DNA from: Thermoanaerobaculia bacterium | GTDB taxonomy: Bacteria; Acidobacteriota; Thermoanaerobaculia; Multivoradales; SZUA-115 | NCBI GenBank assembly: GCA_044869805.1 | Contig: JBIOXV010000207.1 | Coordinates: 8,062 to 72,061 of the forward strand | Reading direction: 5' to 3' | DNA length: 64,000 nucleotides | Shown here: positions 4,937 to 50,294 of the stretch, in pieces | How positions within the stretch are numbered: the first letter of the stretch is position 1 | Layout: each line of letters opens with the position of its first letter | Made by a program: the position numbers and the translations under genes | Notes under the pieces: model-generated | Database searches by the model: none | The model's input: the letters and a program-made list of their open reading frames with translations, nothing else | Told to the model about the DNA's origin: nothing

Positions 4937-4957
4937 AGCCGGCACCCAAGCCCCCCG

Positions 4958-7264
4958 ATGCCTGCCGCCAGTGGCTTTGTCGCGCTCGCCCTGCTCGCCG
5001 CGCCGGGCGACGACCCTCGTGCCGTCGACCTCCGCAAGCTCGACCCGCGGGTGACGTTGGTCGAGAGTCAGCTCGCGGGGCGCTGGGACGCGGCGTTGCG
5101 GGAGACCGAGCGCCTGCTCGCCACCGATCCCGAGCTCTCCCGCCGCGCCGGCCTCCACTACCTGCGCGGGCGCCTCCTCGACCGCCTGCAGCAGGGCACC
5201 GAGGCTTCGAGCGCTTTCCTCGCCGCGATCGCCAGCCATCCCGGCCTCGCCCTCTACAGCTACTACCGCCTGGCTCTCGAGCACGAGCGGCTCGGCCATC
5301 CCGAGATGGCGGCCGGGCTGATCGCACACGTGGTGGGCGCCGACCAGCCGTTCGCCGAGATGCGCATGGCGGTCGAGGTGCTGCGCCGCTCCCTCGCCGC
5401 CGGCGGCGACTGCCGCCTGCTGGGAGGCATCCGCGAGCAGCGCTTCGAGGCCAGGGCGCGGCGCGAGCTGCAACTGACGCGCGCCGAGTGCGCGCTCTCC
5501 GAAGGCCAGCCGGCGCGGGCGGCCGAGATCGTCGCCGCCCTGCTGCGCGAGACGCGAGAGGACGACATCGCCTACCAGGCGGCGCGGCTGGCGACCGACC
5601 AGCTCCTCGGCCGGGCCGGCGCCGGCTTCATGCTGGCGGTGGGCATGACGCTGCACGAGCACCGCGACTTCGCGCGGTCCTCGACGCTCCTCGACCGCGC
5701 GCTCTCCGCCGCCGGCCCGCTGCCGGCGCTGCTCGACGGCGCCGCCTTCGACCACCACTACGCGCGCCAGCGCAACGATTTCTGGCTGGGCGACTACCGC
5801 GCGGCGGCCGGCGGCTTCGGCGCGCTCGCCGAGCGCGCGCCGAGCGCCGAGAAGAAAGCGGACGCGCTCTACCAGGAGGGCCGCTGCCACGAGCTCCTGG
5901 GCGACGCCAGCCGCGCCTCGGCGAGCTTCCGCCGCGCCTACCTCGCCGACCCGGCGTCGGAGTGGGGGCCGCTCGGCCTGCTCTCGGCGCTGCGCGTCGA
6001 GTGGCGGGCCGGCGCCGAGAAGGCGGCGCTCGAGGCCTACGCGCTGCTCGCCACGCTGCGCCACGGGCGCGACCAGGCGGCACGCGGAGCCTTGTTCCTG
6101 GCCGCGTCCGATCTGGTCCAGGGCCGGGCCAACCGCGCCGCGGCCTGGCTCGCCGAGGCCGAGCGCGCGGCGCCCGATCTGGCGAGCGAGATCGGCTACT
6201 GGCGGGGCCGCCGCGCCGAGCTCGCCGGCGAGCGCGAGAAGGCCGTGCTCTCCTACCTCGAGGTGCTGCGCCGCGACGCCTACCAGCCGTTCGCCGCGGC
6301 GGCGCGCGAGCGGTTGGCGGCTCCGGCGCTCGCCCCCGCCGCGCGCGACGTCGGGCTGGGCCTCGCCGCCTCCGAGCGCACCGACGGCCTGTACGCGGCC
6401 TGGCAGCTGCTCGGCGACCGGCATCCGCGGGGCCAGGCGGCGATGGCCGCGCTCGCCCAGCGCCTGGCCCAGGACCCGAGCCTGGTGCCCTTCCTGAAGG
6501 CATTGCCGGTGCCGGTCGGGAGCTGGCCGCTGTGGACCATGCCGCTCGGCCGGCCGGAAGAGGTGCTGCTCGCGCTCGGCCTGTTCGAGGAGGGGGCGCC
6601 GGCCGTGGCGCGGGCCTTCCCGATCTCGGTCCCGATCCTCGCCCTGACCGGCAGCCGCCATCTCGCGGCGGCCGGCGAGACCCGCGAGGCGCTGCGCGTG
6701 GCGGAGGTGCTGGGCGAGCGGCTGCCGCGCACCGCGCCGCATCGCCTGCTGATCCGGCCCTACCGCGAGCTCCTCTACCCGCTGCCGTACCGCGGCCTCC
6801 TCGAGGCCGAGACCGGCAAGCGCGGGGTCGAGCCCATGCTGCTGGCCGCCATCATCCGCGAGGAGAGCCGCTTCGATCCGCGGGCGCTCTCCGGAGCCTC
6901 GGCGCGCGGCCTCACCCAGTTCACCCAGCAGACCGCGCAACGCTTCGCCGAGCGCATCGGCATGCCGACGATCGAGATTGCCGACCTCTATCGGCCGCCG
7001 GTGGCGATCGCGCTCGGCGCCGTCCTGCTGGCGGACCTCGGCCGGCAGTTCCCCGGCGCCGACGCCGCGGTGGTCGCCGCCTACAACGCCGGCGAGGACC
7101 AGGCCCGTCTGTGGCAGCGCTACTGCTTCAGCACCGAGCCGGCCGAGTTCTACACCAAGGTGGCATTCCGCCAGACCCGCGGCTATCTCGGCAAGGTGTT
7201 GACCAGCCGTGCCCACTACCGCGAGATCTACGAGCGGGACGCGGGATACGGAGTCCCCAAGTAA
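4958..7264 (+). CDS. lytic transglycosylase domain protein with N-terminal TPR-like repeats (Slt-like)
   Basis: C-terminal SLT domain motifs (EESRFDPRALSGASARGLTQF, AYNAG), a long alpha-helical repeat region, and a signal peptide. Confidence 0.75.
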   Translation: MPAASGFVALALLAAPGDDPRAVDLRKLDPRVTLVESQLAGRWDAALRETERLLATDPELSRRAGLHYLRGRLLDRLQQGTEASSAFLAAIASHPGLALYSYYRLALEHERLGHPEMAAGLIAHVVGADQPFAEMRMAVEVLRRSLAAGGDCRLLGGIREQRFEARARRELQLTRAECALSEGQPARAAEIVAALLRETREDDIAYQAARLATDQLLGRAGAGFMLAVGMTLHEHRDFARSSTLLDRALSAAGPLPALLDGAAFDHHYARQRNDFWLGDYRAAAGGFGALAERAPSAEKKADALYQEGRCHELLGDASRASASFRRAYLADPASEWGPLGLLSALRVEWRAGAEKAALEAYALLATLRHGRDQAARGALFLAASDLVQGRANRAAAWLAEAERAAPDLASEIGYWRGRRAELAGEREKAVLSYLEVLRRDAYQPFAAAARERLAAPALAPAARDVGLGLAASERTDGLYAAWQLLGDRHPRGQAAMAALAQRLAQDPSLVPFLKALPVPVGSWPLWTMPLGRPEEVLLALGLFEEGAPAVARAFPISVPILALTGSRHLAAAGETREALRVAEVLGERLPRTAPHRLLIRPYRELLYPLPYRGLLEAETGKRGVEPMLLAAIIREESRFDPRALSGASARGLTQFTQQTAQRFAERIGMPTIEIADLYRPPVAIALGAVLLADLGRQFPGADAAVVAAYNAGEDQARLWQRYCFSTEPAEFYTKVAFRQTRGYLGKVLTSRAHYREIYERDAGYGVPK

Positions 7265-7269
7265 GAGCG

Positions 7270-7320
7270 CCCCTCACCCCAGCCCTCTCCCCGCTGCCGC
7301 GGGGCGAGGGGGCCGGAAGG
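7270..7320. terminator. GC-rich imperfect hairpin between the convergent genes (likely bidirectional terminator)
   Basis: CCCCTC..CTCTCCCCGC tgcc GCGGGGcGAGGGGG stem-loop in the 61-bp gap between convergent stop codons. Confidence 0.4.
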
Positions 7321-7325
7321 CGCGG

Positions 7326-8090
7326 TCAGCGCCGGGGGCGCGGTTTCTCGCTGGCGGGTGCCGCGATGGTGTCGACCACCGGCGGCAGGCGGTCGTGCCG
7401 GCGGTCCCAGAGGTTGACGACGTCGGCCGCGCGCTCCAGGTCGGCGGTCCAGCGCACCACCTCCTCGTTCAGCCGCTGCTCGCGGAGCACGGCGCGGACC
7501 TGCTCGCGCACCTGCTCGAGCGGCGGCACGGTCTCGCCCTTGGCGGCCAGGGCCGGCACCATCTCCTCCTCGTAGTACTGGCGGATGTCGTCGGCGCTGA
7601 CGAAAACGCGCGAGCCCAGGCGGCGCTCGATGTAGGCGAGGATGGCGAGCTGGCGCGCCACGAGCTGCTTCAGGCCCGCCTCGGTGAGCGACTGCTCCCG
7701 CAGGCGTTGCTGGTAGGCAGCCTCGTTGGGGAAGCGGCTGCGGATCTCCTCGACCTGGGCCTCGATCTCGGCCACCGGCACCTCGAGTAGGCCCACGCGG
7801 TCGACCTCGTGGAAGCGCAGCCGCTGCTGGATCAGCTCCTCGAGCGCCCGGCGCGACACGGCGTCCGGGGTCTCGCCCGGCTGCGGTGGGTCGACCAGCC
7901 CTAAGCGCAGGGCGCGCTCGACGTCGGAGAGCAGGATCGGGTCCTCGTCGACCACGGCGACGATGCGGTCCTCGAGCTCGAGCGCCGCATCGCGGCCCGG
8001 TGCCTGGCCGTGGGCGGTGGCCGCGACGAGAACCGCGGCGAACATCGTCGCGGCAAAGGGGGCCGCGCGAGAGCGCCGGGAAGCGGCCAT
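7326..8090 (-). CDS. SurA N-terminal domain-containing periplasmic chaperone-like protein
   Basis: Signal peptide and alpha-helical SurA_N-like region. No PPIase domain was seen. Confidence 0.45.
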   Translation of the reverse strand: MAASRRSRAAPFAATMFAAVLVAATAHGQAPGRDAALELEDRIVAVVDEDPILLSDVERALRLGLVDPPQPGETPDAVSRRALEELIQQRLRFHEVDRVGLLEVPVAEIEAQVEEIRSRFPNEAAYQQRLREQSLTEAGLKQLVARQLAILAYIERRLGSRVFVSADDIRQYYEEEMVPALAAKGETVPPLEQVREQVRAVLREQRLNEEVVRWTADLERAADVVNLWDRRHDRLPPVVDTIAAPASEKPRPRR

Positions 8091-8146
8091 GACCGCATGG
8101 TACCATCGCCGCTCTCGCGGCCCGGCGCGAGCTCGACCCTCTCAAG

Positions 8147-8878
8147 ATGGCATCTCCCCGCGGCCGTCTGCTCGTCGTCTCGACCCCGATCGGCAACCTG
8201 GAAGACCTCTCGCCGCGCGCCCGCGCGGCCTTCGAGCGCGCCGACCTGGTGGCCTGCGAAGACACGCGCCACACCGGCCTGCTGCTCTCCAAGCTAGGCA
8301 TCAAGCGACCGCTGGTGTCGCTCCACGAGCACAACGAGCGGCAGCGCCTGCCCGGCCTGCTGGAGGAGCTGGGCCGCGGCCGGGTGATCGCCGTGGCCTC
8401 CGACGCCGGCACGCCCTTGGTCTCCGATCCCGGCTTCCTGCTGGTGCGCGAGGCCGCCGCCCTGGGGTTCGCCGTCGAACCCGTGCCCGGGCCTTCGGCG
8501 TTGCTCGCCGCGCTCGTCGCCTCCGGCCTGCCGCCTCACCCCTTCACCTTCGCGGGCTTCCCGCCGCCCCGCGCCGGCAAGCGCCGCGCCTTCTACCGCG
8601 CGCTCTCCGTTCTGCCCCACACGCTGGTGATCTACGAGTCGCCCCACCGCCTGCTCCCGAGCCTCGAGGATGCGCGCGCCGAGCTGGGCGACCGCCCCGC
8701 CGCCCTCGCCCGCGAGCTCACCAAGCTGCACGAGGAGATGGTGCGCGGCCGGCTGTCGGAGATCGCCGCCGAGCTCGGCTCGCGGCCTTCGATCAAGGGG
8801 GAGATCGTCCTCGTGGTGGCGCCACCCGCCAAAGGCGCGGCGCCGGAAGCGACCGCTACTCCGCGAGACCCGAGCTGA
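8147..8878 (+). CDS. rsmI: 16S rRNA (cytidine1402-2'-O)-methyltransferase
   Basis: RsmI N-terminus (LxVVxTPIGNLxDLSxRA, ACEDTR) and a tetrapyrrole-methylase fold. Confidence 0.85.
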   Translation: MASPRGRLLVVSTPIGNLEDLSPRARAAFERADLVACEDTRHTGLLLSKLGIKRPLVSLHEHNERQRLPGLLEELGRGRVIAVASDAGTPLVSDPGFLLVREAAALGFAVEPVPGPSALLAALVASGLPPHPFTFAGFPPPRAGKRRAFYRALSVLPHTLVIYESPHRLLPSLEDARAELGDRPAALARELTKLHEEMVRGRLSEIAAELGSRPSIKGEIVLVVAPPAKGAAPEATATPRDPS

Positions 8879-9965
8879 TCCAGCAGCCGCCGAGCACTCG
8901 CGTGCCGCGGTAGAAGACCGCGGCCTGCCCGGGTGCGACGCCGCGTTGAGGCTCGTCGAACAGGACCTCGGCATGGCCCTCGGGCAAGGGGCGGACCGTG
9001 GCGCCGACGCCGGGGTGACGGGAGCGGATCTTGACCGTGGCCCGTACCGAGCCGTCCGGCTCGGCGAGGGTCGCGCTGTCGCCGATCCAGTGCAGGCGCT
9101 CGCCCAGCAGGCCGGGAGCCGCGAGCTCGCGCCCGCCGCCGACCACCACGCGGTTCTCGGCCGGCTCCACGGCCAGCACGTAGAGCGGCTCGCGGGCGGC
9201 CACGCCCAGGCCGCGGCGTTGGCCCACGGTGTAGCGGTAGTAGGGCTCGCCGTGGCCCAGGGTGGCGCCGGAGCGGTCGACGATCGTCGCCGGCTCGGGG
9301 GCCGGGGCCGCGAAGCGCTCGGGCCGGGCGGCCGCCTCGCGCTCCACGAACTCCCGCACCCCGCCGGAGACGAAGCAGACCTCCATCGACTCGCCCTTGC
9401 CGGCCACTACCAGCCCGGCCTCGCGGGCGATGTCGCGCACCTCGCGCTTGGTGAGCTCGCCGAGCGGGAAGCGGGAGGCGGCGAGCTGCTCGGGGCCGAG
9501 CTCGAACAGGTAGTAGCTCTGGTCCTTCTCGGTGTCGCGCGCCGCGTGCAGCTCGAGGCCGTGGGGCCCCGGGAGGATGCGCGCGTAGTGGCCGGTCGCC
9601 ACCTGCTCGGCGCCGAAGGCCCGCGCCTTCGCGAGCAGCAGGTCGAACTTGATCCAGGTGTTGCAACGCACGCAGGGCGAGGGCGTGCGGCCCGCCAGGT
9701 AGTCGCCGACGAAAGGATCGACCACTTGGTCGCGGAACTCGCGGTCCAGGCGCAGGGTGTAGTGGGGGATGCCGGCCTGCTGCGCCACGCGGCGCGCGTC
9801 GCCCAAGTCCAGCGCGCCGCAGCAGCGGCCGTTGGACGCCTCCTCGGCGCGGTCCCAGAGCAGCATCGAGAGCCCCACCACGCTCTCGCCTTGTTTGGCG
9901 AGCAGGTAGGCGGTGACCGAGGAGTCCAGGCCGCCGCTCATCGCCACGGCAATCAGATGGCTCAT
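8856..9965 (-). CDS. mnmA: tRNA-specific 2-thiouridylase
   Basis: PP-loop SGGxDSS and conserved CxRCN/WIKF motifs. Confidence 0.9.
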   Translation of the reverse strand: MSHLIAVAMSGGLDSSVTAYLLAKQGESVVGLSMLLWDRAEEASNGRCCGALDLGDARRVAQQAGIPHYTLRLDREFRDQVVDPFVGDYLAGRTPSPCVRCNTWIKFDLLLAKARAFGAEQVATGHYARILPGPHGLELHAARDTEKDQSYYLFELGPEQLAASRFPLGELTKREVRDIAREAGLVVAGKGESMEVCFVSGGVREFVEREAAARPERFAAPAPEPATIVDRSGATLGHGEPYYRYTVGQRRGLGVAAREPLYVLAVEPAENRVVVGGGRELAAPGLLGERLHWIGDSATLAEPDGSVRATVKIRSRHPGVGATVRPLPEGHAEVLFDEPQRGVAPGQAAVFYRGTRVLGGCWISSGLAE

Positions 9966-10003
9966 AGGGGCTTGCTCATTTGGGCCTGCTCATGTGGGCC
10001 TGC

Positions 10004-11206
10004 TCACGCGGCCCCCGCGATCGGCGACTGCGCCGGTGACGCCTCGGCGAGCGGCGCCACCCGGCGCAGTGCTGCGGCTTCGCGGGCAAGGGCGGGCAGG
10101 AAGGCGTCGACCTCGGCCTCGGTGTTGGTCAGGCCGAAGCTGATGCGCAGCGAGGACAGGGCCTCGCGCGGCGACATCCCCATGGCGAGCAGCGCCTTGC
10201 TCGGCTCGACGACGCCGGAGGAACAAGCCGAGCCGGTGGAGACCGCGAAGCCGGCCAGGTCGAGGCGGATGAGCAGCGACTCGGCTTCGATTCCCAGGAA
10301 GGCGACGTGCGAGGTGTGGGGCAGGCGCGGCGCCTGCCGGCAGTGGACGACGGCGCCGGGCACCGCCGCGAGCCCGGCCTCGAAGCGGTCGCGCAGCGCC
10401 GCGAGGTGCCGGTGGCGCTCGGCGAGATCGCGGCGCGCGAGCTCGGCCGCCTTGCCGAGGCCGACGATCGCCGGCACGTTCTCGGTCGAGGCGCGGCGGC
10501 GGCGCTCCTGGCTGCCGCCCACCAGGCTGGCGGCGAACGGCGCCCCCGGCCGCACCCACAGGGCGGCGGCCCCCAGCGGGCCGTGGAACTTGTGGCCGCC
10601 GATCACCAGGTAGTCGACGCCGAGCTCGCCGGCGTCGACGGCGATCTTGCCGGCCGCCTGCGCGGCGTCGCAGAGCACCGGGATGCCCCGGGTACGGCAG
10701 GCGCGGGCCACCTCCGCCACCGGCTGGATGGTGCCGACTTCGTTGTTGGCGAGCATCAGGCAGACGAGACGGGTGTCGCTCCGCAGGGCGGCGGCGACGG
10801 CCGCGGCCGGTACCACTCCTTCGCGTTCTGGGGCGTCTCCGTCCGGGGCCACCCGTGTCGCCTCCATGCCGGCCGCCTCCAGGAGCTCGACGGCCTGGTG
10901 CACGGAGGGGTGCTCGAAGGCGGAGAGCACCAGGTGCCCGCGGTAGCCCGCCACGGCGCCCACCGCGGCGACGACCGCGTTGTTGGCCTCGGTGCCGGAG
11001 GAGGTGAAGACGATCTCCACCGGCCGGACGCCGAGCAGCGCCGCCACCTCTGCACGCGCGGCCTCGACGGCCTCGCGTGCCTGTTGGCCGAAGCGGTGGA
11101 TGGAGGAAGGGTTGCCGTGGCGGCTGCCGAGCCACGGGAGCATGGCCTCGGCCACGCGGGGGTCGAGGGGGGTGGTGGCGTTGTGGTCGAGGTAGACGGC
11201 GTCCAT
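10004..11206 (-). CDS. iscS: cysteine desulfurase (NifS/IscS family), upstream of mnmA on the same strand
   Basis: PLP-lysine region (GGHKFHGP) and SxxSACSS active-site cysteine loop. The sulfur-relay pairing with mnmA fits this call. Confidence 0.85.
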   Translation of the reverse strand: MDAVYLDHNATTPLDPRVAEAMLPWLGSRHGNPSSIHRFGQQAREAVEAARAEVAALLGVRPVEIVFTSSGTEANNAVVAAVGAVAGYRGHLVLSAFEHPSVHQAVELLEAAGMEATRVAPDGDAPEREGVVPAAAVAAALRSDTRLVCLMLANNEVGTIQPVAEVARACRTRGIPVLCDAAQAAGKIAVDAGELGVDYLVIGGHKFHGPLGAAALWVRPGAPFAASLVGGSQERRRRASTENVPAIVGLGKAAELARRDLAERHRHLAALRDRFEAGLAAVPGAVVHCRQAPRLPHTSHVAFLGIEAESLLIRLDLAGFAVSTGSACSSGVVEPSKALLAMGMSPREALSSLRISFGLTNTEAEVDAFLPALAREAAALRRVAPLAEASPAQSPIAGAA

Positions 11207-11381
11207 CAGGGGGCCATTTTAGCCGCTAGGGAGGGCCGCGGGTCCCGGACCCGCCTCGTGAGCTCCCCCCGCGGGCGACGCGGAGACTGTCTAAACTTGC
11301 GTTCGAGCGGCCCGCGGCTTGCATGCCGCGGATGCGCGCACTGAGCCCGTTGTCGTCGCAGCCTCGACTCGGCAGAGAGGA

Positions 11382-13925
11382 ATGATGAGAAGAAGCCACC
11401 TCCAGCTCCTGACCCTTTGTAGCGTGTGCGTCCTGGCTCTGGTCGCGCTGGCGCCGCTCCCCACCATTTCGGCCCACGCCAAGGAAAAGGACGCGGACCG
11501 CATCAAGGCGCTGCCGGCCAAGTACCAGGCGTGGCTCGAGGAGGTGGACGTGCTGATCTCGAAGGAGGAGAAGGCGGCCTTCCTCGAGCTCAAGGAGGAC
11601 TACCACCGCGACGCCTTCATCGCGCGCTTCTGGAAGGCCCGCGACCCGTTCCTGGACACCGCCCGCAACGAGTTCCGCGACCGTTTCGAGCAGACGGTGG
11701 CGCTCGCCCGCACCACGTTCGGCGACCTCAAGGAGGAGCGGGCGCGCATGATGCTCCTGAACGGCGAGCCGGGCGAGGTGCGCAAGGTGCAGTGCCCGAC
11801 CGTGCTGTGGCCGACCGAGATCTGGGCCTACGCCGGCAGCGACCGCGTGAGCTACCAGTTCTTCCTCGTCTTCTACCGCAAGTGGGGTGCCGGAAGGTAC
11901 ACGCTGTGGCGGCCGATCGAGGGCCTCCAGGAGCTGTTCCAGGAGCCGATGGGCGCTGGCGGCACGGGCGGCGGAAACCTGCTGGCCCAGATCCGCGACC
12001 GCTGCTACCGCGGCGACGAGGTGGCGGCCATCCTCGGCTCGATGATCGCCCAGGGCGCCCTCGGTTACGAGACCACCCTCGCCGAGGCGACGGAGAAGCC
12101 TCCTCCGCCCGAGGGCGAATGGGTGTCCACTTTCGAGGCCTACTCGACCGATCTGCCGGCGGGCGCGGCCTCGCTGCCCGCCACGCTCGAGGTTCTCTAC
12201 CCGGGCCGGCGGCAGAACCGCACCGCGGTCGAGGGCGTGATCACCGTGCCGCTGGCCGACGCGGGGCAGGCCGCGCTCGCCGACTACCGCTCTTACAACT
12301 TCGTGCTCACCGGCGAAGTCCTGGCGGGCACCGAGCTCTTCGACTCCTTCCGCTACAAGTTCGACCTGCCGGTCGGCGAGGCCGCCGGCGCGTCGTACCC
12401 CCTGGTCTTCCAGCGCTACCTGCGGCCCGGCTCCTACCGCCTGGTGGTGAAGCTCGAGGACCTGAACGGCAAGAAGTTCTTCCGCTCCGATCGGGCGCTC
12501 GAGGTGCCGGAGGTCGGCGAGGCGCCGCCACCTGCGCCCGACCCCGACACGGCGCGCATCCTGGCCGAGGCCAACGCGGTGCTGGCCACCGGCGAGACCA
12601 CGCTCGCGATCGTCGAGCCCCAGGGCGAGCTGCTCTCCGGCATGCGGCGCATCGACACGCTGGTGACCGGCAGCGGCATCGCCCGCGTGACATTCCGTCT
12701 CGACGGCCGCGAGGTGCTGACCAAGAAGGTGCCGCCCTACTCGGTGGAGCTCGACCTGGGCTCGCTGCCGCGGCCGCGCACCCTCGAGGCCTCGGCCTAC
12801 GACGCCTCCGGCCACGAGCTGGCCTCGGACCGCGCGTTGATCAACGCCACGCCACACCGCTTCGCCGTCCGCCTGACCGAGCCGCGGCGCGGCGCCACCT
12901 ACAAGGGCAGCCTGGTGGCCCGCGCCGAGGTCGAGGTGCCGGAGGGCCGCTCGATCGAGCGCGTCGAGTTCTTCTTGAACGAGACCCGCGTCGCCACCCT
13001 CTACCAGCAGCCCTTCGAGCAGCCGATCGTGCTGCCGGACAACGAGCCGCTGGCCTACGTGCAGGCCGTGGCGTATCTGCCGGACGGCAACTCCACCCAG
13101 GACCTGGTGTTCGTCAACGCGCCCGACCTGCTGGAGGAGATCGACATCCAGTTCGTGGAGCTCTACACCACGGCCCTCGACCGCGACGGACGGCCGAGCT
13201 TGGGCCTCGAGGAGGGCAGCTTCCGGGTCTTCGAAGACGGCGCGCCGCAGGAGATCCGGCGCTTCGAGGTGGTGCGCGATCTCCCCATCCACGCCACCGT
13301 GCTGCTCGACGTCTCTGGCTCGATGGAGGACAGCCTGGACCAGACGCGCGAGGCGGCGCTCGGCTTTTTCCAGCAGATCCTCGAGCCCAAGGACCGCGCC
13401 GCGCTGGTTACCTTCAACGACCGGCCGACGCTCGAGGTCAAGTTCACCAACGAGGTCACCGCCTTGGCTGGCGGCCTCGCGGGCTTGAAGGCGGAGCGCG
13501 GCACCGGGCTCTACGACAGCCTGATCTTCAGCCTCTACTACTTCAACGGCATCAAGGGCCAGCGCGCGCTGCTGGTGCTCTCCGACGGCAAGGACGAGTC
13601 CAGCCGCTTCAAGTACGAGGACGCGCTGGAGTACGCCCGCCGCGCCGGGGTGACGATCTACTCGATCGGCCTGTCGCTGCCCAAGGGCGAGGCGCGCCGC
13701 GAGCTGGCGCATTTCGCGGACCAGACCGGAGGCCGCGCCTACTTCCTCGACTCCGCGGCCGAGCTGCCGGCAATCTATGCCGCGATCGAGGAGGAGCTGC
13801 GCTCGCAGTACCTGATCGCCTACCAGTCGACCAACACCTCGAAGGAGGCCACGTTCCGCAGCGTGGAGGTGAAGATCGAGAAGGCTGGGTTCGAAGCGAA
13901 GACCATTCGTGGTTATTACCCGTGA
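11382..13925 (+). CDS. secreted GWxTD-like N-domain / C-terminal VWA-domain protein, paralog 1 (Acidobacterial VWFA-related family)
   Basis: Signal peptide, N-terminal FWxxRDPxxxTxRNE and GEP..WPxEIWxY motifs, C-terminal VWA domain with MIDAS DxSGS (LLDVSGSM), and a terminal GYYP. Start is at the ATG preceded by GAGAGGA. Confidence 0.7.
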   Translation: MMRRSHLQLLTLCSVCVLALVALAPLPTISAHAKEKDADRIKALPAKYQAWLEEVDVLISKEEKAAFLELKEDYHRDAFIARFWKARDPFLDTARNEFRDRFEQTVALARTTFGDLKEERARMMLLNGEPGEVRKVQCPTVLWPTEIWAYAGSDRVSYQFFLVFYRKWGAGRYTLWRPIEGLQELFQEPMGAGGTGGGNLLAQIRDRCYRGDEVAAILGSMIAQGALGYETTLAEATEKPPPPEGEWVSTFEAYSTDLPAGAASLPATLEVLYPGRRQNRTAVEGVITVPLADAGQAALADYRSYNFVLTGEVLAGTELFDSFRYKFDLPVGEAAGASYPLVFQRYLRPGSYRLVVKLEDLNGKKFFRSDRALEVPEVGEAPPPAPDPDTARILAEANAVLATGETTLAIVEPQGELLSGMRRIDTLVTGSGIARVTFRLDGREVLTKKVPPYSVELDLGSLPRPRTLEASAYDASGHELASDRALINATPHRFAVRLTEPRRGATYKGSLVARAEVEVPEGRSIERVEFFLNETRVATLYQQPFEQPIVLPDNEPLAYVQAVAYLPDGNSTQDLVFVNAPDLLEEIDIQFVELYTTALDRDGRPSLGLEEGSFRVFEDGAPQEIRRFEVVRDLPIHATVLLDVSGSMEDSLDQTREAALGFFQQILEPKDRAALVTFNDRPTLEVKFTNEVTALAGGLAGLKAERGTGLYDSLIFSLYYFNGIKGQRALLVLSDGKDESSRFKYEDALEYARRAGVTIYSIGLSLPKGEARRELAHFADQTGGRAYFLDSAAELPAIYAAIEEELRSQYLIAYQSTNTSKEATFRSVEVKIEKAGFEAKTIRGYYP

Positions 13926-43643: not shown

Positions 43644-44174
43644 GTGGACATCCCGCGCGCCACCCGAGTTGTCGCCGCTCATTTCGAGGGCCGAGGCGCT
43701 CCCTTCGCCGTGATCGGCGGCCTGGCACTGCACGCCTATGGCCTGCCTCGTGCCACATTCGACGTTGACTTCGCGACCGACGCGGCCAACCAGACGGAGC
43801 TGATCGAATTCCTGGAGTCGCTTGGCTACAGGACCCTTCATCGCTCCGCGGGCTACTCCAATCATCTCCATGACGATCCGGCCTGGGGCCGGGTCGACGT
43901 CGTGTATGTGCGAGACGAAACCAGCCGGCGCCTATTCACCGACGTACGCCGGCTGGAGCTGCTTCCCGGCCTGGTGGCTCCCGTTCCACGTCCGGAGCAT
44001 CTGATCGCGATGAAGGTGCACGCCATGGCGAACAGCCCCGAGCGCAGCTTCCAGGAGCTGGCGGATATCCGGTACTTGCTCACGCTTCCTGGAGTCGACG
44101 AGGGCGAGGTCCGAGAGGCCTTCGCCAAGAGAGGTTTGGCCCATCGCTATGACGACCTCGGCCGGTCGATCTGA
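43644..44174 (+). CDS. nucleotidyltransferase-fold protein (minimal nucleotidyltransferase/AbiEii-like)
   Basis: GGLALHAYGLPRATFDVDF resembles the GS...D.D motif of minimal nucleotidyltransferases. Confidence 0.45.
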   Translation: MDIPRATRVVAAHFEGRGAPFAVIGGLALHAYGLPRATFDVDFATDAANQTELIEFLESLGYRTLHRSAGYSNHLHDDPAWGRVDVVYVRDETSRRLFTDVRRLELLPGLVAPVPRPEHLIAMKVHAMANSPERSFQELADIRYLLTLPGVDEGEVREAFAKRGLAHRYDDLGRSI

Positions 44175-44355: not shown

Positions 44356-44634
44356 GAGCATTGGTGAAGGCCGTTGCCTGCGATCCGGGGTGCGCCCACT
44401 CTGTACAGCGCGAGCAGATGTGGCCTGAATGCTTGTTTCTGTGAGACCATCTGCTACTGCTCTGTACATACGACACCGTAACCTGCTGAGTGCGCTTCAG
44501 AACGAGCACTTTCGGGCCCGAGTAATGTGAAACCAGAAGAAGCCCATGCTCGCAGCTTATGAAGACAGGGTCGCCTTGAGCTGGCTCAGAGTTGTCGGCC
44601 TTCAGGCGGCCCAGGAAGAGCAGACGAATCAGCG

Positions 44635-45813
44635 ATGAGAGGGCGCCAGCCAGACGCGGCGGAACGACTACGGTCCGCTCTCGTTTCGGCGAAGTACACA
44701 GCCGGCAGGACCCATAGCTTCTACCTGTACCCTGCTCGGTTCTCACCCGAGATCGCGAAGGCTGTGGTCGAGTCCTTCACGGAGCCAGGTGACTGTGTCC
44801 TGGACCCATTTATGGGTGGTGGTACGGCTGTCGTAGAGGCGCTCAGCATTGGGCGGTCCGTGCTCGGTGTCGACCTGAACGCCCTAGCGCACTTCGTCGC
44901 TGAAGTAAAGACTCGACCTCTGTCGGGCCGGGACGAGGACGCCATCCAATGGTGGGCCTGCGGTGCCGCTCGGGGTCCGCGGTGGGCGCCGTCCGAGTCC
45001 ATGGCCGACGTCCAGAATCTCCCGGTCTCGATGAGGCGACTTCTCTCAGCGGCTCTCGCTCGGACAGAGGATCTCGACTTTCCGCGACAGCGCGCTTTTG
45101 CCCGCGGTGTGCTCTTGCGCCTTGGTCAGTGGGCTCTGGATTGTCGGGACGATTCGGCTCCAAGCAGACAGGACCTCGCGGAGAAGCTGCCGGAGCTAGC
45201 GGATCAGATGCTCGTGGGCCTGCGCGAGCTTGTTGAGTCGTGTCAGGCCGCGGGTATCCCGAAGAACCGCATAGTTGGGAAGCGACGGCTGTTGTGCCGC
45301 AATGCCGCTGGGCTTCATAAAGATCCGCGCATTGAACAACTCCGCGTGCGGCCACGCCTCGTCTTCACGTCTCCACCGTACCCGTGTGTCCATGTCCTCT
45401 ATCACCGTTGGCAGGTGCGCGGCCGTCGAGAGACCCCAGCCCCCTATTGGATCGCCCAGGTGCCGGATGGCTTCTACGCGAGCCACTACACGGGGGGGAG
45501 CCGCACGCCGACTGGAGAACGAAACTACTTCTCGATGATCCGGGCCGTGTTCACGTCGGTGCGACAAATTATCGCGCCCGACGCCGTCGTCATTCAGCTG
45601 GTGGGGTTCGCCGATTTCAAGCGACAACTCCCGCTCTACTTGTCCACGATGGCGGAAGCGGGCTTCGATACCGACGCCAACGCTGCGGGCAGCGGCCTAG
45701 TTCGGAACGTGCCCAACCGCAAGTGGTACGCAAAGCTCCAAGGGGACGTTGATGCCTCCTCGGAGGTGCTGCTGTTCCACCGGCCGCGTCGGGAGTGCAG
45801 GTCCCTGCACTAG
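44635..45813 (+). CDS. DNA methyltransferase (amino-MTase, N6A or N4C; motif I ... TRD ... motif IV order)
   Basis: Motif I DPFMGGGT near the N-terminus and motif IV TSPPY at about aa 245. Confidence 0.6.
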   Translation: MRGRQPDAAERLRSALVSAKYTAGRTHSFYLYPARFSPEIAKAVVESFTEPGDCVLDPFMGGGTAVVEALSIGRSVLGVDLNALAHFVAEVKTRPLSGRDEDAIQWWACGAARGPRWAPSESMADVQNLPVSMRRLLSAALARTEDLDFPRQRAFARGVLLRLGQWALDCRDDSAPSRQDLAEKLPELADQMLVGLRELVESCQAAGIPKNRIVGKRRLLCRNAAGLHKDPRIEQLRVRPRLVFTSPPYPCVHVLYHRWQVRGRRETPAPYWIAQVPDGFYASHYTGGSRTPTGERNYFSMIRAVFTSVRQIIAPDAVVIQLVGFADFKRQLPLYLSTMAEAGFDTDANAAGSGLVRNVPNRKWYAKLQGDVDASSEVLLFHRPRRECRSLH

Positions 45814-45822
45814 GTGGCGCAG

Positions 45823-48168
45823 CTATGGTCCGGCGGCCTGCGGGCCTCGGTAGAGGGTTCGGATCATCGGGATGATGATCCGCGCGATCCCGTCACAGTA
45901 GAGGCTGACGCGCCTCAGCTCGTCGACCTCACCTTCTTCCTCCGTTTCAGCGTTGCCATTCTTGGCCTCAGCCTTGGCCTCAGCCCTGTCCTGCAATTCC
46001 TTCTGCATTCCGAGGGCGCAGAGCAAGAGGCCATACTTGAACCAGTACTCGATGAGCGGATGGTCTTCCTCCTTCGCGCGGACGAGAGCATCTGTGAGGT
46101 ATGCGTTCTTCCTGTTGGCGAAGTACTCGAGCCCCCCGCTGTCGTCGTGCAGGATCTTGAGCGAGACCCCAGAGTCGTCGTAGTCCTTCCACTTGATCTC
46201 CGGGATGGCAAGGGTCGGCGCCTGACTCCGAGTTCCAGGCTGGCTGCGAGGGCCGCGTTGGTTCGGCCCCGGCGGCCTCGGATCCGACTCGGGTTCGGCC
46301 ACCAGAGTGAATCGGGACACGAAGGGCGAATCCCGTGTCTCAGTCTGGAGGTCCTCCACGCGGACCTCCACATCGATACGGTCGCCAGGCTTGGCGTCCC
46401 ATGGGACTCGCAGCAGGGCGTTCCAGCGCCCGTTCCAGAGGTTCTGGTGCTCAACGAGGTTCGGTGGCGAGACGCTTAGCGACCCCGGTGAGTCGCTTCT
46501 CCTGAAGTAGTCGTTCACGGCATCGGTTTCGAACTCTACGCGGCACGTCAGGTTGACCGGACAGGACTTCACCAGTCCACTTGGCGGGTTCTTTGTCAGG
46601 CGGAAGTAGGTCGGGAATTTCCTCCCAGTGAAGGGGGCCTCAGGGTCGGGGCCGGCCTTGGTGATCAGCCGGTCGCCGCTCCCGAAGAGCCGTGCGAGCA
46701 AGGGGTCAGACTTCAGGAGCTCGCTGAAGAGGTTCTTGGTTTCGTCCTCGTTGCTGAGGGTGTCCTCGATCTCCTTCTTCCGGCGTGAAGCGTTGAGCTG
46801 GCGAAGGCCAGCGTGGTCCCGCAGCACTTCCTTGAGCCGGTCGACTACCTCGTCGTAGATGTCGTTCTTCCTCACCCGGTCGCGCGACGCCATGAAGAAG
46901 TCCTCTCTTACCCCCGGGTCCATCGCTGTGCAGTCGATCGAGACGAGGAGGTGGTCCTTCAGGTAGTCCCACTTCAACCGGCGTGCGACGAAGTCCGAGG
47001 GAAGGCCGCCGTGCACCTGGCCGTTGACGGTAAAGAACACACCGTGTGGAATGTGGCGGGGCCTCACAGATTCGCGGAACACGGCGATTCGATAGGGCAG
47101 CAGCCCGATCCCCAGGAGGTCAAGGTCCGCGTAAGCTGGGAAGCCTACTTCGACCTTCGAGTCCTCCGGCGCATCATCCGACCCGATCGTGGCCCAGATT
47201 CCGGCCACGGTCGTGCTGAAGTAGTTGGCCCGGTAATCCCGGGTCTCAGTGAGTCGGAAGGGGAGGCAGGGTGAGTGCAGGAATCGCTCGAGCTCGTAGC
47301 GTGCCTCGAGTGTCGCGATTCCCCTCCCGCCCTTCCACTCGAAGTTGTACAGCTTGACGCACGTGCCGTATGGCAGATCGAGCATGTACGGCCTGGGCTG
47401 CGCTGTGCTCCGATCCTCGGGAAGCACCTTCACCGCCGCCGCGGCAAAGCGAGGCACTCTACCTCCCGGAGCGAGATAGACGTACATCGAGCTCGGGCGG
47501 GAGGGAGACGGCATCATGCGCCGGACGATCGTGAACCCCCAGAGGTCCTTCGAGGAGTCTCCTGGCCGTACTGGTAGGTCTGGGTGCCTGCGCGACAGGA
47601 TGAGCTGCATCTTGTGCTTACCGCAGAATGGAAGCGCGCCGGTGCCGCCGCAGTTGTACTTCCCCTGGACGAAGGGGATGCCCACCTTGTTCATGCGGAT
47701 CAAGGAGAGGAAGGTGCTCGGGAACTCGTCGGGAGTCTGGCCCTCGCCCTTGTCGATGACCAAGTATGACGGAGAGGCCTTCTCGCCGAGCACGACGACG
47801 TGGAGCCTCTTCGCCAGCTCTGTCTGTTCCTTGGCCACGAGGTTGGAGAGGAGCCCATCCTTCACTTGGAAGAACTCACCGACTGCTCGGGCCATGCTCT
47901 CCGGCGCGGCCGAGCTCTTGGGGTCGATGCCGCGCTTGAGGCACTCCGCCATCAGGAGCGCGTCGATGCCATTGACGATCTTCTCGACGAAGGCAGCGGT
48001 TGCCTCTGTCTGCTGATTCGTGACTACCGATCGGTTGTTCGGCATGTCCCCGAGCGGATGCCAGACCTCTTCGTTCTCGAGGCCGTACCCGGCCCGGGCG
48101 AGGATCTCATCCGCGCGGTCTTCGGCTTCAGCGTGGAGCAGGTGATCGAAGAGCGTAGTCTCGTCCAT
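45823..48168 (-). CDS. large protein with an N-terminal GHKL (MORC/MutL-like) ATPase motif set; unknown C-terminal 500 aa
   Basis: N-box EKIVNGIDA (ExxxNxxDA), G1 box DKGEG (DxGxG), and G2-like GKYNCGGTGA, at the spacing expected for GHKL ATPases. In an operon with the DGQHR gene. Confidence 0.4.
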   Translation of the reverse strand: MDETTLFDHLLHAEAEDRADEILARAGYGLENEEVWHPLGDMPNNRSVVTNQQTEATAAFVEKIVNGIDALLMAECLKRGIDPKSSAAPESMARAVGEFFQVKDGLLSNLVAKEQTELAKRLHVVVLGEKASPSYLVIDKGEGQTPDEFPSTFLSLIRMNKVGIPFVQGKYNCGGTGALPFCGKHKMQLILSRRHPDLPVRPGDSSKDLWGFTIVRRMMPSPSRPSSMYVYLAPGGRVPRFAAAAVKVLPEDRSTAQPRPYMLDLPYGTCVKLYNFEWKGGRGIATLEARYELERFLHSPCLPFRLTETRDYRANYFSTTVAGIWATIGSDDAPEDSKVEVGFPAYADLDLLGIGLLPYRIAVFRESVRPRHIPHGVFFTVNGQVHGGLPSDFVARRLKWDYLKDHLLVSIDCTAMDPGVREDFFMASRDRVRKNDIYDEVVDRLKEVLRDHAGLRQLNASRRKKEIEDTLSNEDETKNLFSELLKSDPLLARLFGSGDRLITKAGPDPEAPFTGRKFPTYFRLTKNPPSGLVKSCPVNLTCRVEFETDAVNDYFRRSDSPGSLSVSPPNLVEHQNLWNGRWNALLRVPWDAKPGDRIDVEVRVEDLQTETRDSPFVSRFTLVAEPESDPRPPGPNQRGPRSQPGTRSQAPTLAIPEIKWKDYDDSGVSLKILHDDSGGLEYFANRKNAYLTDALVRAKEEDHPLIEYWFKYGLLLCALGMQKELQDRAEAKAEAKNGNAETEEEGEVDELRRVSLYCDGIARIIIPMIRTLYRGPQAAGP

Positions 48169-48184
48169 TGGCGGGGTCCCCCTC

Positions 48185-49306
48185 CTACGTCCGCGCCAAG
48201 GCTTTGCCGGCCTTAGGCGCTCCAGGAGGGATCAGTCGCTGGTGCTCCCTGGCAGAGACGCTGAGGCCAAGAACGCGCTTCAGGACGGCCAGGGTTTGCA
48301 CTCTCGCTTGCCGGTTCGAGACCACGGAGCCCGCGGTGATGCACACGTTGTCCCAAACGGGATTGACCTTCGAGCCGACCGACTTCCGCCAGTCGAGTTC
48401 CCGCAAGGGCTCGAGTCGCGCCTGCCAGTCACGCGGGCGCTCCTCGATGAGCGATCGCCCTGCGCCTCCGAGTGCTCGCATCACCACGGCATGTGTGTTG
48501 ATCCTCTCCTGGCGCAGCTCGGGCGCCTTGAGGTCGCCAGCCGCGACCTTGCGCCAGTCGGTGATCACTGTGCTCAGGGCCGTCCAGTACTCCACTGCGA
48601 GGCTGAGCCTCAATTCGTAGTCCTGACTGCCACGCTTATCCACTTTCTGACCAACGAGTTCCTCGTTCGCGTCGTAGAGCGTGGACAGCGTGAAGAGCTT
48701 CGGCGATCGAATCGGGATCGTGATCTTCTCCTTGTCGACCATGCCCCGGAACACGTCGACCTTCTCGGAGACATCCATGGTCAAGGCTGAGAGGTTGTCG
48801 CGGTGGTCGTAGAGGACGTCGAGCGACTTGGACGTCTTGTGCGCGTAGCGGTTGAGATCCGTGAACATCTGTTGCAGTCGCTCGAGGTTCTCCATCGGGA
48901 ACAGGAGAACCGAGATCTTGTCCTTGCCTAGGGCGGGGTTCTCCTTGATTGCTGCTGCGATGCCAGCGGACCTGTGCTGACCGTCATTGATGACCAGCTC
49001 GAGGTTCTCGAGCTCCATCTCGAGAGTGCCCAGATCCAAGTTCTCGGCGATCGGGAGGAACTTCACCTCGGAGGAGTAGGAAGCGGTGATCGAGGAGAAC
49101 AGGTAGCCGTCCTCGTTATCGAGGATGTACTTCATGATGTCGGGTACGCGACTCCTGTTCAGGACGCGCTGGGCGCGGAGCTCGGGCGTGCACTGCTCCC
49201 AGTCGTTGAAGCGGAACAACCGAGGAACCTCGGCGAGCGACACCGAGATCGTGAAGTACTGCCGCCCGCCCATTAACCCTCGGATGGCTGGGATGAAGAC
49301 CCTCAT
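48185..49306 (-). CDS. DGQHR-domain (DndB-like, ParB/Srx fold) protein
   Basis: Literal motif LVINDGQHRSAGIAAAI. The size (373 aa) matches the DndB-like family. Confidence 0.7.
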   Translation of the reverse strand: MRVFIPAIRGLMGGRQYFTISVSLAEVPRLFRFNDWEQCTPELRAQRVLNRSRVPDIMKYILDNEDGYLFSSITASYSSEVKFLPIAENLDLGTLEMELENLELVINDGQHRSAGIAAAIKENPALGKDKISVLLFPMENLERLQQMFTDLNRYAHKTSKSLDVLYDHRDNLSALTMDVSEKVDVFRGMVDKEKITIPIRSPKLFTLSTLYDANEELVGQKVDKRGSQDYELRLSLAVEYWTALSTVITDWRKVAAGDLKAPELRQERINTHAVVMRALGGAGRSLIEERPRDWQARLEPLRELDWRKSVGSKVNPVWDNVCITAGSVVSNRQARVQTLAVLKRVLGLSVSAREHQRLIPPGAPKAGKALART

Positions 49307-49345
49307 TGTTTGCCCTCCATATCCGAGCTCTCAACGGATGTCGCC

Positions 49346-49443
49346 AGAGCTGTCACGAGATAGTGTAGGAGCTGAGGATTACAAATGTCAAGAGCTGTCT
49401 GGCATGTAGTTGAGAGCTGTCAACTTGAGGTTAGAGAGCTGTA
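49346..49443. promoter_or_regulatory. four direct repeats AGAGCTGT(C/A), spaced 45/22/22 bp, in the upstream region of the DGQHR-GHKL operon
   Basis: Copies at about 49346, 49391, 49413 and 49435, lying between the DGQHR gene start (49306) and the island boundary. Confidence 0.5.
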
Positions 49444-49593: not shown

Positions 49594-49893
49594 ATGAAGG
49601 CTACGATCGAAGTACCGGACGATCTCTACCGCCAGGTAAAGGCAAAGAGTGCCCTCGAGGGACGAGCTGTGCGAGACGTGGCGGAGGAGCTGTTTCGCGG
49701 CTACGTGAGCCGCGAGCCTCCCCGGGCGAGCGAGGACCAGCAGGACGCTGGCACCTCCAGGACGCGGGACGAGGACCCGATGCCTCCCTGGTTCGGCGTC
49801 TTGCGGAAATACGCGCGTCGAGTCCAGCAGCACGACATGGATGCGATCCGCAAGAGCATCGCCGCGGGCGTTGCCAGGGAGCGTGGCCTCTGA
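49594..49893 (+). CDS. vapB: VapB-like antitoxin
   Basis: Small protein with an MKATIEVPDDLYRQVKAKSA N-terminus, directly upstream of a PIN gene with a 2-bp gap. Confidence 0.55.
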   Translation: MKATIEVPDDLYRQVKAKSALEGRAVRDVAEELFRGYVSREPPRASEDQQDAGTSRTRDEDPMPPWFGVLRKYARRVQQHDMDAIRKSIAAGVARERGL

Positions 49894-49895
49894 AC

Positions 49896-50294
49896 GTGGG
49901 TCTCGACACCTCGGTCGTGGTGCGGGTCCTCGCGGGCGAACCGGAAGGGCTCGCTCTCGCCGCCCTACGGTTCCTGCAGGAGCGCCAGCGAGCGGGCGAC
50001 CGCGTCCTGATCTCCGACTTGGTGCTCGCCGAGACCTACCACGCGTTTCAACATCACTACGGCGCCTCGAAGAAGGACACGCTGGCCGCCCTTCGAGCCT
50101 TCCTGGCGACTCCGGGAGTCGAGGGCACGGGCGAGGCGCCGAGAGTGCTGGTCGCTCCAGGCCTGGAGTCCGCCAAGCCGGGCTTCGTCGATCGAGTCAT
50201 CCATCGGGACTATCTGCGATCGGGTGCCGAGCAGGTGGCGACCTTCGAGCGAGCCTCCGCCAAGCTGATCGAGGTGGCGGTGCTGGGAGTCTGA
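49896..50294 (+). CDS. vapC: PIN-domain toxin VapC
   Basis: GLDTSVVV..D.LVLAE PIN acidic residues. GTG start. Confidence 0.75.
   Translation: MGLDTSVVVRVLAGEPEGLALAALRFLQERQRAGDRVLISDLVLAETYHAFQHHYGASKKDTLAALRAFLATPGVEGTGEAPRVLVAPGLESAKPGFVDRVIHRDYLRSGAEQVATFERASAKLIEVAVLGV

Follow-up and report, generated by a model that had tools for sequence, protein, structure and literature searches.

A mobile amino-methyltransferase and GHKL ATPase cassette headed by a DndB-like gene: a candidate unnamed restriction-modification-like defence system

Background

Esp1396I and PvuII are type II restriction-modification (R-M) systems governed by a controller (C) protein, and in the Esp1396I layout the C and R genes form an operon that is convergent with the M gene. 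Here we analysed a cassette of comparable layout in a 64,000-nt stretch –the window, from here on– of contig JBIOXV010000207.1 from a Thermoanaerobaculia bacterium (GCA_044869805.1). A DNA amino-methyltransferase gene faces a two-gene operon, which encodes a DndB-like DGQHR protein and a 781-aa GHKL ATPase. The cassette is most likely an unnamed and undescribed R-M-like defence system.

Several other described systems come close to this combination. Prokaryotic MORC/paraMORC GHKL ATPases were predicted to act in R-M systems by Iyer, Abhiman and Aravind in 2008, in a survey that mentions no DndB/ParB partner (PMC2292703). Shedu type I-D, or paraMORC3, is represented by VcSduA, with an N-terminal GHKL ATPase, a predicted clamp-like middle domain and a C-terminal DUF4263 PD-(D/E)xK nuclease; it needs no methylase, and its ATPase motif is required for anti-phage defence (PMC12137116). 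In the validated system Ambrosia, an XRE-type transcriptional regulator is combined with a type II-like amino-methylase and an Hsp90/histidine-kinase-like ATPase; a REC response regulator and an HNH endonuclease are required as well (bioRxiv 10.1101/2025.09.30.679545).

On the DndB side, a DGQHR protein of this family heads the modification/defence operon in Dnd and Dpd (7-deazaguanine) systems. A published description of DndB combines a ParB-like with a HEPN domain (PMC3632139), and experiments have shown that the Salmonella protein is autoregulatory and binds to repeats within its promoter (PMC4507180). SspABCD systems work with SspE (DUF262 + DUF1524) or SspFGH (SspF and SspH being Walker-A and FtsK-like), none of them GHKL, and 84% of sspBCD clusters lack a known restriction partner (PMC8092258).

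The initial annotation of the window, made from sequence, did not recognise the three-gene combination as a named system. We likewise found no such system in PADLOC-DB 2.0.0 (2023), Pfam and NCBIfam, and no description of the cassette or of its component combination in open-access papers and bioRxiv.

Results

Conservation across genomes and partner swapping

In contigs with ATPase homologues at 52-73% identity the arrangement is the same, with a DndB gene followed by the ATPase gene and a convergent methylase gene. We extended the comparison to one genome per species, using tblastn and all-against-all clustering of the neighbouring genes, and obtained 46 loci. They span more than 10 phyla, including Acidobacteriota, Chloroflexota, Actinomycetota, Verrucomicrobiota, Planctomycetota, Bacteroidota, Pseudomonadota, Methylomirabilota, Latescibacterota, Elusimicrobiota and Calditrichota, as well as archaea (Methanophagales and Methanoperedenaceae).

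About 40 of the 46 loci have an orthologous methylase gene alongside the ATPase gene. These orthologues are full-length at 28-88% identity (36-88% apart from locus L039), and the linkage holds although gene order is shuffled: the methylase gene is convergent with the ATPase gene in 28 loci, upstream on the same strand in nine, divergent in two and downstream on the same strand in one. DndB was found in 19/46 loci and is absent from the other 27. Elsewhere, the upstream gene encodes an unrelated protein of ~375 aa (cluster-8, 11 loci), with a weak winged-helix match and an apparent ribbon-helix-helix (RHH)-like N-terminus, a protein of 70-130 aa (seven loci), or one of ~218 aa (two Planctomycete loci).

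Thus, the pair of methylase and GHKL ATPase forms the conserved core, and the upstream position is taken by at least four interchangeable partners, DndB among them. The expected conservation of the cassette as a unit held, with DndB as a facultative member; the complete trio was seen in 17 genomes besides the window. The pairwise identities of the ATPase are correlated with those of the methylase (r 0.52, Mantel p 0.001); for DndB, the correlation is r 0.35 with the ATPase vs. r 0.70 with the methylase. A further universal cassette gene was considered and rejected, as neighbour clustering over the 46 loci yielded no others besides methylase, ATPase and the exchangeable upstream genes.

Two loci carry additional proteins. 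In the archaeal locus L048, the ATPase gene is followed by genes for a 790-aa protein, a 707-aa HATPase_c_3 protein and a RAMA-domain protein. In L018 (Acidobacteriota), the methylase and DndB genes are separated by a second, very divergent ATPase paralogue (4698-6068, minus strand; 24% identity over aa 36-470).

The methyltransferase

Against Pfam N6_N4_Mtase the methyltransferase scores 50 bits (4.7e-13; cut-off 26.7), and against the PADLOC type II methylase model MTase_II it reaches 2e-17. TSPPY is invariant in 40/40 methylase orthologues, in agreement with the amino-methyltransferase call made at first. Motif I (DPFMGGGT) is N-terminal and motif IV (TSPPY) is C-terminal, so that the enzyme is circularly permuted relative to the Pfam model, which therefore aligns over the motif I region only. 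With both motifs present, we identify it by sequence as an N6/N4 amino-DNA-methyltransferase. Its best PDB sequence matches, over the motif I region only, are N4-cytosine methyltransferases; these nearest solved relatives and the SPPY signature suggest N4-cytosine specificity, with N4-methylcytosine (m4C) as the product.

The least conserved part of the methylase is its target recognition domain (TRD)-like region, aa 101-240, while the ATPase shows conservation from end to end. This points to the methylase as the seat of sequence specificity, which its TRD-like region probably supplies.

The GHKL ATPase

The 781-aa protein had no Pfam, NCBIfam or PADLOC match at E <= 0.01, and no PDB sequence match either as a single sequence or as a profile of 49 homologues. 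Its family is large, with at least 2,659 representatives at 50% identity (E <= 1e-3; 953 at E <= 1e-30) and more than 2,260 clusters at 90% identity in a word-limited search. The annotation of these proteins is uniformly 'hypothetical', and homologues were absent from the phage genomes searched.

When 49 homologues (51-78% identity) were aligned, the N-box (E62-x3-N66-x2-D69), G1 (D139-x-G141-x-G143) and G2 (G169...G174-G175), on which the GHKL call had been based, were all invariant. Foldseek searches with the predicted model matched GyrB43, Hsp90 and TopoVI-B at E ~1e-9. Fold assignments rest on AlphaFold2 (AF2) models of moderate confidence, which predict a GHKL domain plus S5-like transducer (~aa 55-430), a helical linker (436-494), an Ig-like beta-sandwich (~520-625), a small beta unit and a long helical hairpin (658-772). 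These models and the invariant boxes support a GHKL ATPase with a Bergerat fold and an S5-type transducer.

Two points of the earlier reading call for revision. The label 'MORC-like' is narrower than the evidence allows, as there is no HATPase_c_3 match and the fold likeness to Hsp90, GyrB and MutL is at least equal to that to MORC; because the Foldseek matches are GyrB43, Hsp90 and TopoVI-B, we refer to a GHKL + S5-type ATPase and not specifically to MORC. The C-terminal half, in which the initial annotation recognised no domain and suggested looking for a nuclease fold, is predicted to hold the linker, the Ig-like beta-sandwich and the helical tail.

The DndB-like protein

The 373-aa protein is unambiguously a member of the DndB/DGQHR family by its profile matches. 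It matches Pfam DndB PF14072 at 1.4e-104 over aa 5-348, PADLOC DndB at 2.1e-108 and TIGR03187 DGQHR with 225 bits (cut-off 58.9). DGQHR (D108-R112), DLNR and the HEPN-like R265-x6-H272 are invariant among cassette DndB homologues, which are 50-93% identical to each other and ~37% identical to canonical dndB products encoded beside dndCDE. TIGR03233 DndB is matched with 334 bits, just above its cut-off of 328. Since this passes the NCBI DndB equivalog cut-off, systematic mis-annotation as 'DNA sulfur modification protein DndB' is likely, also where a genome lacks phosphorothioation genes. The initial annotation had seen no phosphorothioation genes nearby, and tblastn with DndC/D/E and SspB/C/D was empty over the whole window.

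Among plasmid-encoded proteins, the nearest relative of the DndB-like protein (46% identity) comes from L057, a 15-kb plasmid of Neorhizobium sp. SOG26 (6839-13355). Genes for a CopG regulator and for two large N-6 DNA methylases adjoin its gene, a TIR gene lies on the opposite side, and dndCDE is absent. Here again, a DndB-family protein is found in a methylation context, not a phosphorothioation one.

Promoter array and controller role

The window has four copies of ACAGCTCT, and they are all found in the 100 bp that precede the DndB-like gene. They belong to an operator-like array (Table 1) whose hexamers lie at -135, -113, -91, -68, -46 and -24 relative to the ATG. A phased array was found upstream of the DndB-like gene in 14/19 other DndB loci from different phyla (15/20 with the window), and it is confined to loci with DndB. 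In these, 69 array sites were counted where the remainder of each locus predicts 5.1; in loci without DndB the array is missing, with two sites vs. 3.0 expected. The junction ACAGCTCTTGACA, which joins the -35 element to one of the operator copies, often comes with the array and was found again in L005, L009, L011 and L013. Variant motifs are CAGCTG in L030 and L035, CAACTC in L027 and GATGTC in L015, the last also with 22-bp phasing.

What overlaps the -35 element at cluster-8 loci is a different sequence, the palindrome AAGAAGTTGACTTCTT, ~40-60 bp upstream of the cluster-8 gene (L031, L033, L046, L052 and also L047). It looks like the operator of the cluster-8 protein itself.

DndB had been described at first as a regulator or nickase. 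The phased array favours the regulator: here, DndB may at least in part be a promoter-binding autoregulator rather than a defined nickase. Together with the Salmonella DndB precedent, the array leads us to read the upstream gene, of whichever family, as a putative autoregulatory controller of the ATPase operon. We also considered CAGCTC as a restriction target avoided in the host and rejected it, since the window holds 159 sites vs. ~80 expected, in a count confounded by codon usage.

Gene decay and defence-related partners

In three unrelated genomes the ATPase gene is interrupted by an insertion sequence (IS): one of the IS481 family in L029 (10226-11203) and DDE transposases in L032 (9834-10817) and L051 (4478-7861). 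About four more genomes have it in a frameshifted or truncated form. The methylase matches are single, near-full-length tblastn alignments in 40/40 cases, none of them visibly disrupted.

Directly after the ATPase gene, three Verrucomicrobial loci carry a TIR-domain gene (Pfam TIR_2 2.3e-29; Table 1); most loci, including the window, have neither a TIR nor a SIR2 gene. AbiE, CBASS and MmeI-type R-M genes are occasional neighbours across the loci.

Distant ATPase homologues, with 21-32% identity over aa 2-600, were found on plasmids of cultured organisms. On Ensifer adhaerens pC (L054), a Devosia neptuniae plasmid (L055) and a Hymenobacter plasmid (L056), homologues at ~31% identity lie beside SspA/B/C/D genes, whose PADLOC scores leave little doubt (SspB 1.5e-112, SspC E = 0, SspD 1.9e-116). 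L054 and L055 also encode a second HATPase protein of ~780 aa, annotated as 'sensor histidine kinase', and a hypothetical protein of 635-680 aa; in Hymenobacter, SIR2 and DUF262 genes adjoin the homologue as well. With a methylase in the cassette and SspA/B/C/D beside the plasmid homologues, the wider ATPase family is repeatedly paired with DNA-modification modules of two chemistries. The plasmid homologues may be an unrecognised restriction partner for Ssp systems. Identity with SspFGH was rejected, as SspF and SspH are Walker-A and FtsK-like proteins and the homologues, like the 781-aa protein, match no PADLOC-DB 2.0.0 model. A VapBC pair lies near the Ensifer plasmid homologue.

Layout, mobility and surroundings of the cassette

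The reading frames and their strands are exactly as placed by the initial annotation (Table 1), and so is the 9-bp gap (45814-45822) between the convergent methyltransferase and ATPase genes. The DndB-like and ATPase genes are 16 bp apart in the window and overlap in L003.

Table 1. Features of the cassette in the window, and TIR genes at three other loci
Feature	Position	Strand	Basis and proposed role
DNA amino-methyltransferase, 392 aa	44635..45813	+	ORF (open reading frame); motifs I and IV around a variable TRD-like region; proposed modification component
GHKL ATPase + S5-like transducer, 781 aa	45823..48168	-	ORF; proposed restriction-side engine or sensor
DndB-like DGQHR (ParB/Srx-fold) protein, 373 aa	48185..49306	-	First gene of the two-gene operon; proposed autoregulatory controller, possible enzymatic cofactor
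Operator-like array, six [C/G]AGCT[C/G] hexamers	49325..49441	-	22-23 bp phasing; spans the promoter
Sigma-70-like promoter: TTGACA, 18 nt spacer, TACACT	49362..49391	-	Consensus scan 10/12; -35 fused to operator copy
Mobile cassette extent	44578..49399	.	blastn vs. closest relative; GC trough
TIR gene, L031	10328-11317		
TIR gene, L046	10341-11327		
TIR gene, L050	8609-9559		

The closest relative, L008, is a Thermoanaerobaculia MAG (metagenome-assembled genome) contig. By blastn, the cassette extent given in Table 1 is the only stretch shared with it (87% nucleotide identity), and the flanks are unrelated; so, the three genes move as one 4.8-kb unit. GC is 0.62-0.64 across the cassette (trough at 44-50 kb) vs. 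~0.72 in the flanks. As for marks of an insertion site, neither a tRNA nor an integrase was found at the cassette within the window.

The cassette is flanked by an AbiEii-like gene on one side and a VapBC-like pair on the other. Directly after argS, and before the cassette, lies a gene for an AbiEii-like nucleotidyltransferase (176 aa, 43644-44174, plus strand; Pfam AbiEii 2.4e-08), with no AbiEi antitoxin reading frame seen adjoining it. An AbiEii-like gene flanks the cassette also in L008, and AbiE pairs do so in three to four other loci. Just past the promoter side are a probable VapB-like antitoxin (99 aa, 49594-49893, plus strand) and, next to it, a PIN-domain VapC-like toxin (132 aa, 49896-50294, plus strand; Pfam PIN 4.4e-05). 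Elsewhere in the window, ARAGORN placed a tRNA-Gly(CCC) at 6460-6555 (minus strand) with 96 nt, unusually long for a bacterial tRNA-Gly, possibly through an insertion, or else a miscall.

Comparison with described systems

In plan, the cassette resembles the C-protein type II R-M systems. Both have a methylase and a second component in an operon behind a regulatory gene –here, that of a putative autoregulator–, convergent with the methylase gene; an operator –here, a predicted one– overlaps the promoter; the unit is mobile and GC-atypical; and the 'R' gene decays while the 'M' gene persists. Yet the 'R' of the cassette is a 781-aa GHKL + S5 ATPase without a recognisable nuclease, its putative controller is a 373-aa ParB/Srx-fold DndB with conserved enzymatic motifs instead of an 80-aa helix-turn-helix (HTH) protein, and its predicted operator is a six-site array with 22-bp phasing.

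With paraMORC (PMC2292703), the cassette has in common the GHKL + S5 architecture, association with a DNA methylase, a patchy, lateral distribution and occasional TIR partners. It differs in that its ATPase family matches neither HATPase_c_3 nor any other Pfam model, ends in an Ig-like plus helical module, and is not linked to an SF-II helicase or to Vsr, HNH or RE-fold nucleases. VcSduA resembles the 781-aa protein in its N-terminal GHKL ATPase and predicted clamp-like middle domain, but the cassette ATPase has neither DUF4263 nor a PADLOC Shedu match; lacking that nuclease, the cassette is not Shedu type I-D/paraMORC3. Ambrosia has a comparable set of regulator, amino-methylase and ATPase. 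The cassette lacks the XRE-type regulator, the REC response regulator and the HNH endonuclease, and no REC or HNH family occurs among conserved neighbours over the 46 loci, so it is not Ambrosia.

The DndB-family protein at the head of the operon recalls Dnd and Dpd systems. Here, though, there is no dndCDE, sspBCD or dpdA, the modification enzyme is a methylase dependent on S-adenosylmethionine (SAM), and DndB forms its own subgroup. With no DndC/D/E or SspB/C/D in the window, a DndB only ~37% identical to canonical ones, and mobility that does not involve these genes, the cassette is not a dnd, ssp or dpd system. The link with SspABCD + SspE/SspFGH (PMC8092258) lies in the three plasmids, where distant ATPase homologues occupy the position expected of a restriction partner; the window itself has no Ssp genes. 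The cassette is a variant of the R-M-like, GHKL-associated systems and a strong candidate for experimental testing.

Discussion

We lean, by a modest degree, toward a self-contained, horizontally mobile R-M-like immune module. The methyltransferase would mark host DNA, likely with m4C. The GHKL + S5 ATPase would be the restriction-side component, an ATP-driven and probably dimeric clamp of the MutL/MORC/Hsp90 type, which would engage DNA without the mark, probably with the methylase for site recognition. It would then block the unmarked DNA directly or pass it to an effector. The only candidate effector in the window is the DndB-like ParB/HEPN-type protein; in other lineages, TIR or SIR2 proteins could take this place. 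The DndB-like protein would bind the 22-bp-phased CAGCTC array over its own promoter and autoregulate the dndB-ATPase operon as a C protein does, and it might add a ParB/HEPN-type enzymatic activity. Domain identities, gene linkage, conserved motifs and the operator pattern come from the computations; what this scheme adds to them is inferred.

Several observations weigh against this reading. Decay of the ATPase gene with persistence of the methylase is the pattern expected if R is costly and M protective, but the asymmetry (~7 vs. 0) is statistically weak, with p ~0.06 on a length-only null, because the ATPase gene is twice the length of the methylase gene. The neighbourhoods are only modestly enriched in defence genes, in qualitative terms, and many neighbours are housekeeping genes. 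Some loci have no methylase within 8 kb: the Chloroflexota loci L022 and L023 hold DndB and ATPase (with a divergent DndB, at 33% identity, and a different promoter motif), and the Methanophagales locus L048 holds a cluster-8 gene and ATPase. Fold searches with full-length and C-terminal models of the ATPase returned GHKL and Ig-like folds only, with no nuclease fold or conserved nuclease-like motif, and no PADLOC restriction endonuclease (REase) model matched in the cassette. The CAGCT core could be the target of the methylase instead of, or besides, an operator. With DGQHR, DLNR and Rx6H invariant, DndB probably does more than repress transcription. Finally, the homologues come nearly all from MAGs.

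Those invariant motifs also speak for an alternative in which the DndB-like ParB/Srx-HEPN protein itself is the nuclease or nickase. The ATPase would then serve it as an ATP-dependent clamp or activator, in the way that MutL serves MutH; the methylase would protect self DNA, and the promoter array would amount to incidental autoregulation. ParB/Srx proteins have been reported to nick DNA under nucleotide control (PMC12839542), DndB itself has been described as ParB-like + HEPN (PMC3632139), and the close spacing of the DndB and ATPase genes, with their overlap in L003, suggests co-translation. We regard this alternative as unlikely. DndB cannot be the universal effector of the family because it is absent from 27/46 genomes, where the partner is a small or predicted winged HTH (wHTH)/RHH-type protein without a nuclease signature, and its co-variation with the ATPase is weaker than with the methylase. 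Rather less probable in our judgement is that the GHKL protein serves as a sensor switch in abortive infection, perceiving unmodified or invading DNA and activating whichever effector is encoded (TIR, SIR2 or DndB/HEPN) or, where there is none, entrapping and silencing DNA without cleavage as MORC proteins do. Most loci, including the window, have no TIR or SIR2 gene, and entrapment would be a pure analogy with eukaryotic MORC; still, such a switch would suit an ATPase in which searches found no nuclease fold, the TIR genes after the ATPase gene in L031, L046 and L050, the SIR2 and DUF262 genes beside the Hymenobacter homologue, and the paraMORC4-TIR links predicted earlier (PMC2292703).

A role outside immunity is improbable: the cassette would then serve a mobile element as an epigenetic regulatory or addiction module, in which an orphan-like methylase, the ATPase and the regulator control expression or maintenance. 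Mobility, the many housekeeping neighbours, the loci without a methylase and the missing nuclease would all fit such a role, but less so the R-M-like architecture with its swappable controller, the decay of the ATPase gene and not of the methylase gene, the ties of some variants to TIR/SIR2 genes and Ssp modules, and a distribution that is wide and patchy in bacteria and archaea. A remnant or satellite of a dnd system, with a DndB that regulates dndCDE elsewhere and two neighbour genes unrelated to it, is hardly credible. The narrowly passed TIGR03233 equivalog cut-off (334 vs. 328 bits) and an IscS-like cysteine desulfurase at 10136-11200, 33 kb from the cassette, could be quoted for it; the window has no DndC/D/E or SspB/C/D by tblastn, the trio recurs in 17 further genomes and moves as one unit, and cassette DndBs are far closer to one another (50-93%) than to canonical dndB (~37%).

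Beyond the R-M-like module that we favour, a broader proposal is put forward tentatively, and we consider it doubtful: that the GHKL family is a common reader or engine of a very widespread class of modification-based immunity that has so far gone unrecognised. It would tell unmodified DNA apart whatever the mark of its partner (methyl here, phosphorothioate in distant relatives) and act without a nuclease of its own, either by ATP-driven entrapment and silencing, as a functional counterpart of MORC, or by switching on DndB ParB/HEPN, TIR or SIR2 effectors. On this view, the DndB family would control DNA-modification immunity in general and would not be specific to phosphorothioation.

Conclusions

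If the R-M-like reading is true, the cassette would be a new defence system, with a signature family of at least 2,659 clusters at 50% identity that has no domain model, name or annotation. It would be spread over many bacterial phyla and over archaea of the ANME (anaerobic methanotrophic)/Methanoperedens groups, which are poorly covered by defence catalogues built on cultured genomes. DndB-family proteins would act outside phosphorothioation, and their carriers are probably mis-annotated as 'DNA sulfur modification'. A GHKL clamp ATPase would be the restriction-side component of a methylation-based system without an obvious nuclease, which bears on how MORC-type proteins read epigenetic marks. 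Besides, the family offers candidates for the missing restriction partners of many 'orphan' SspBCD clusters.

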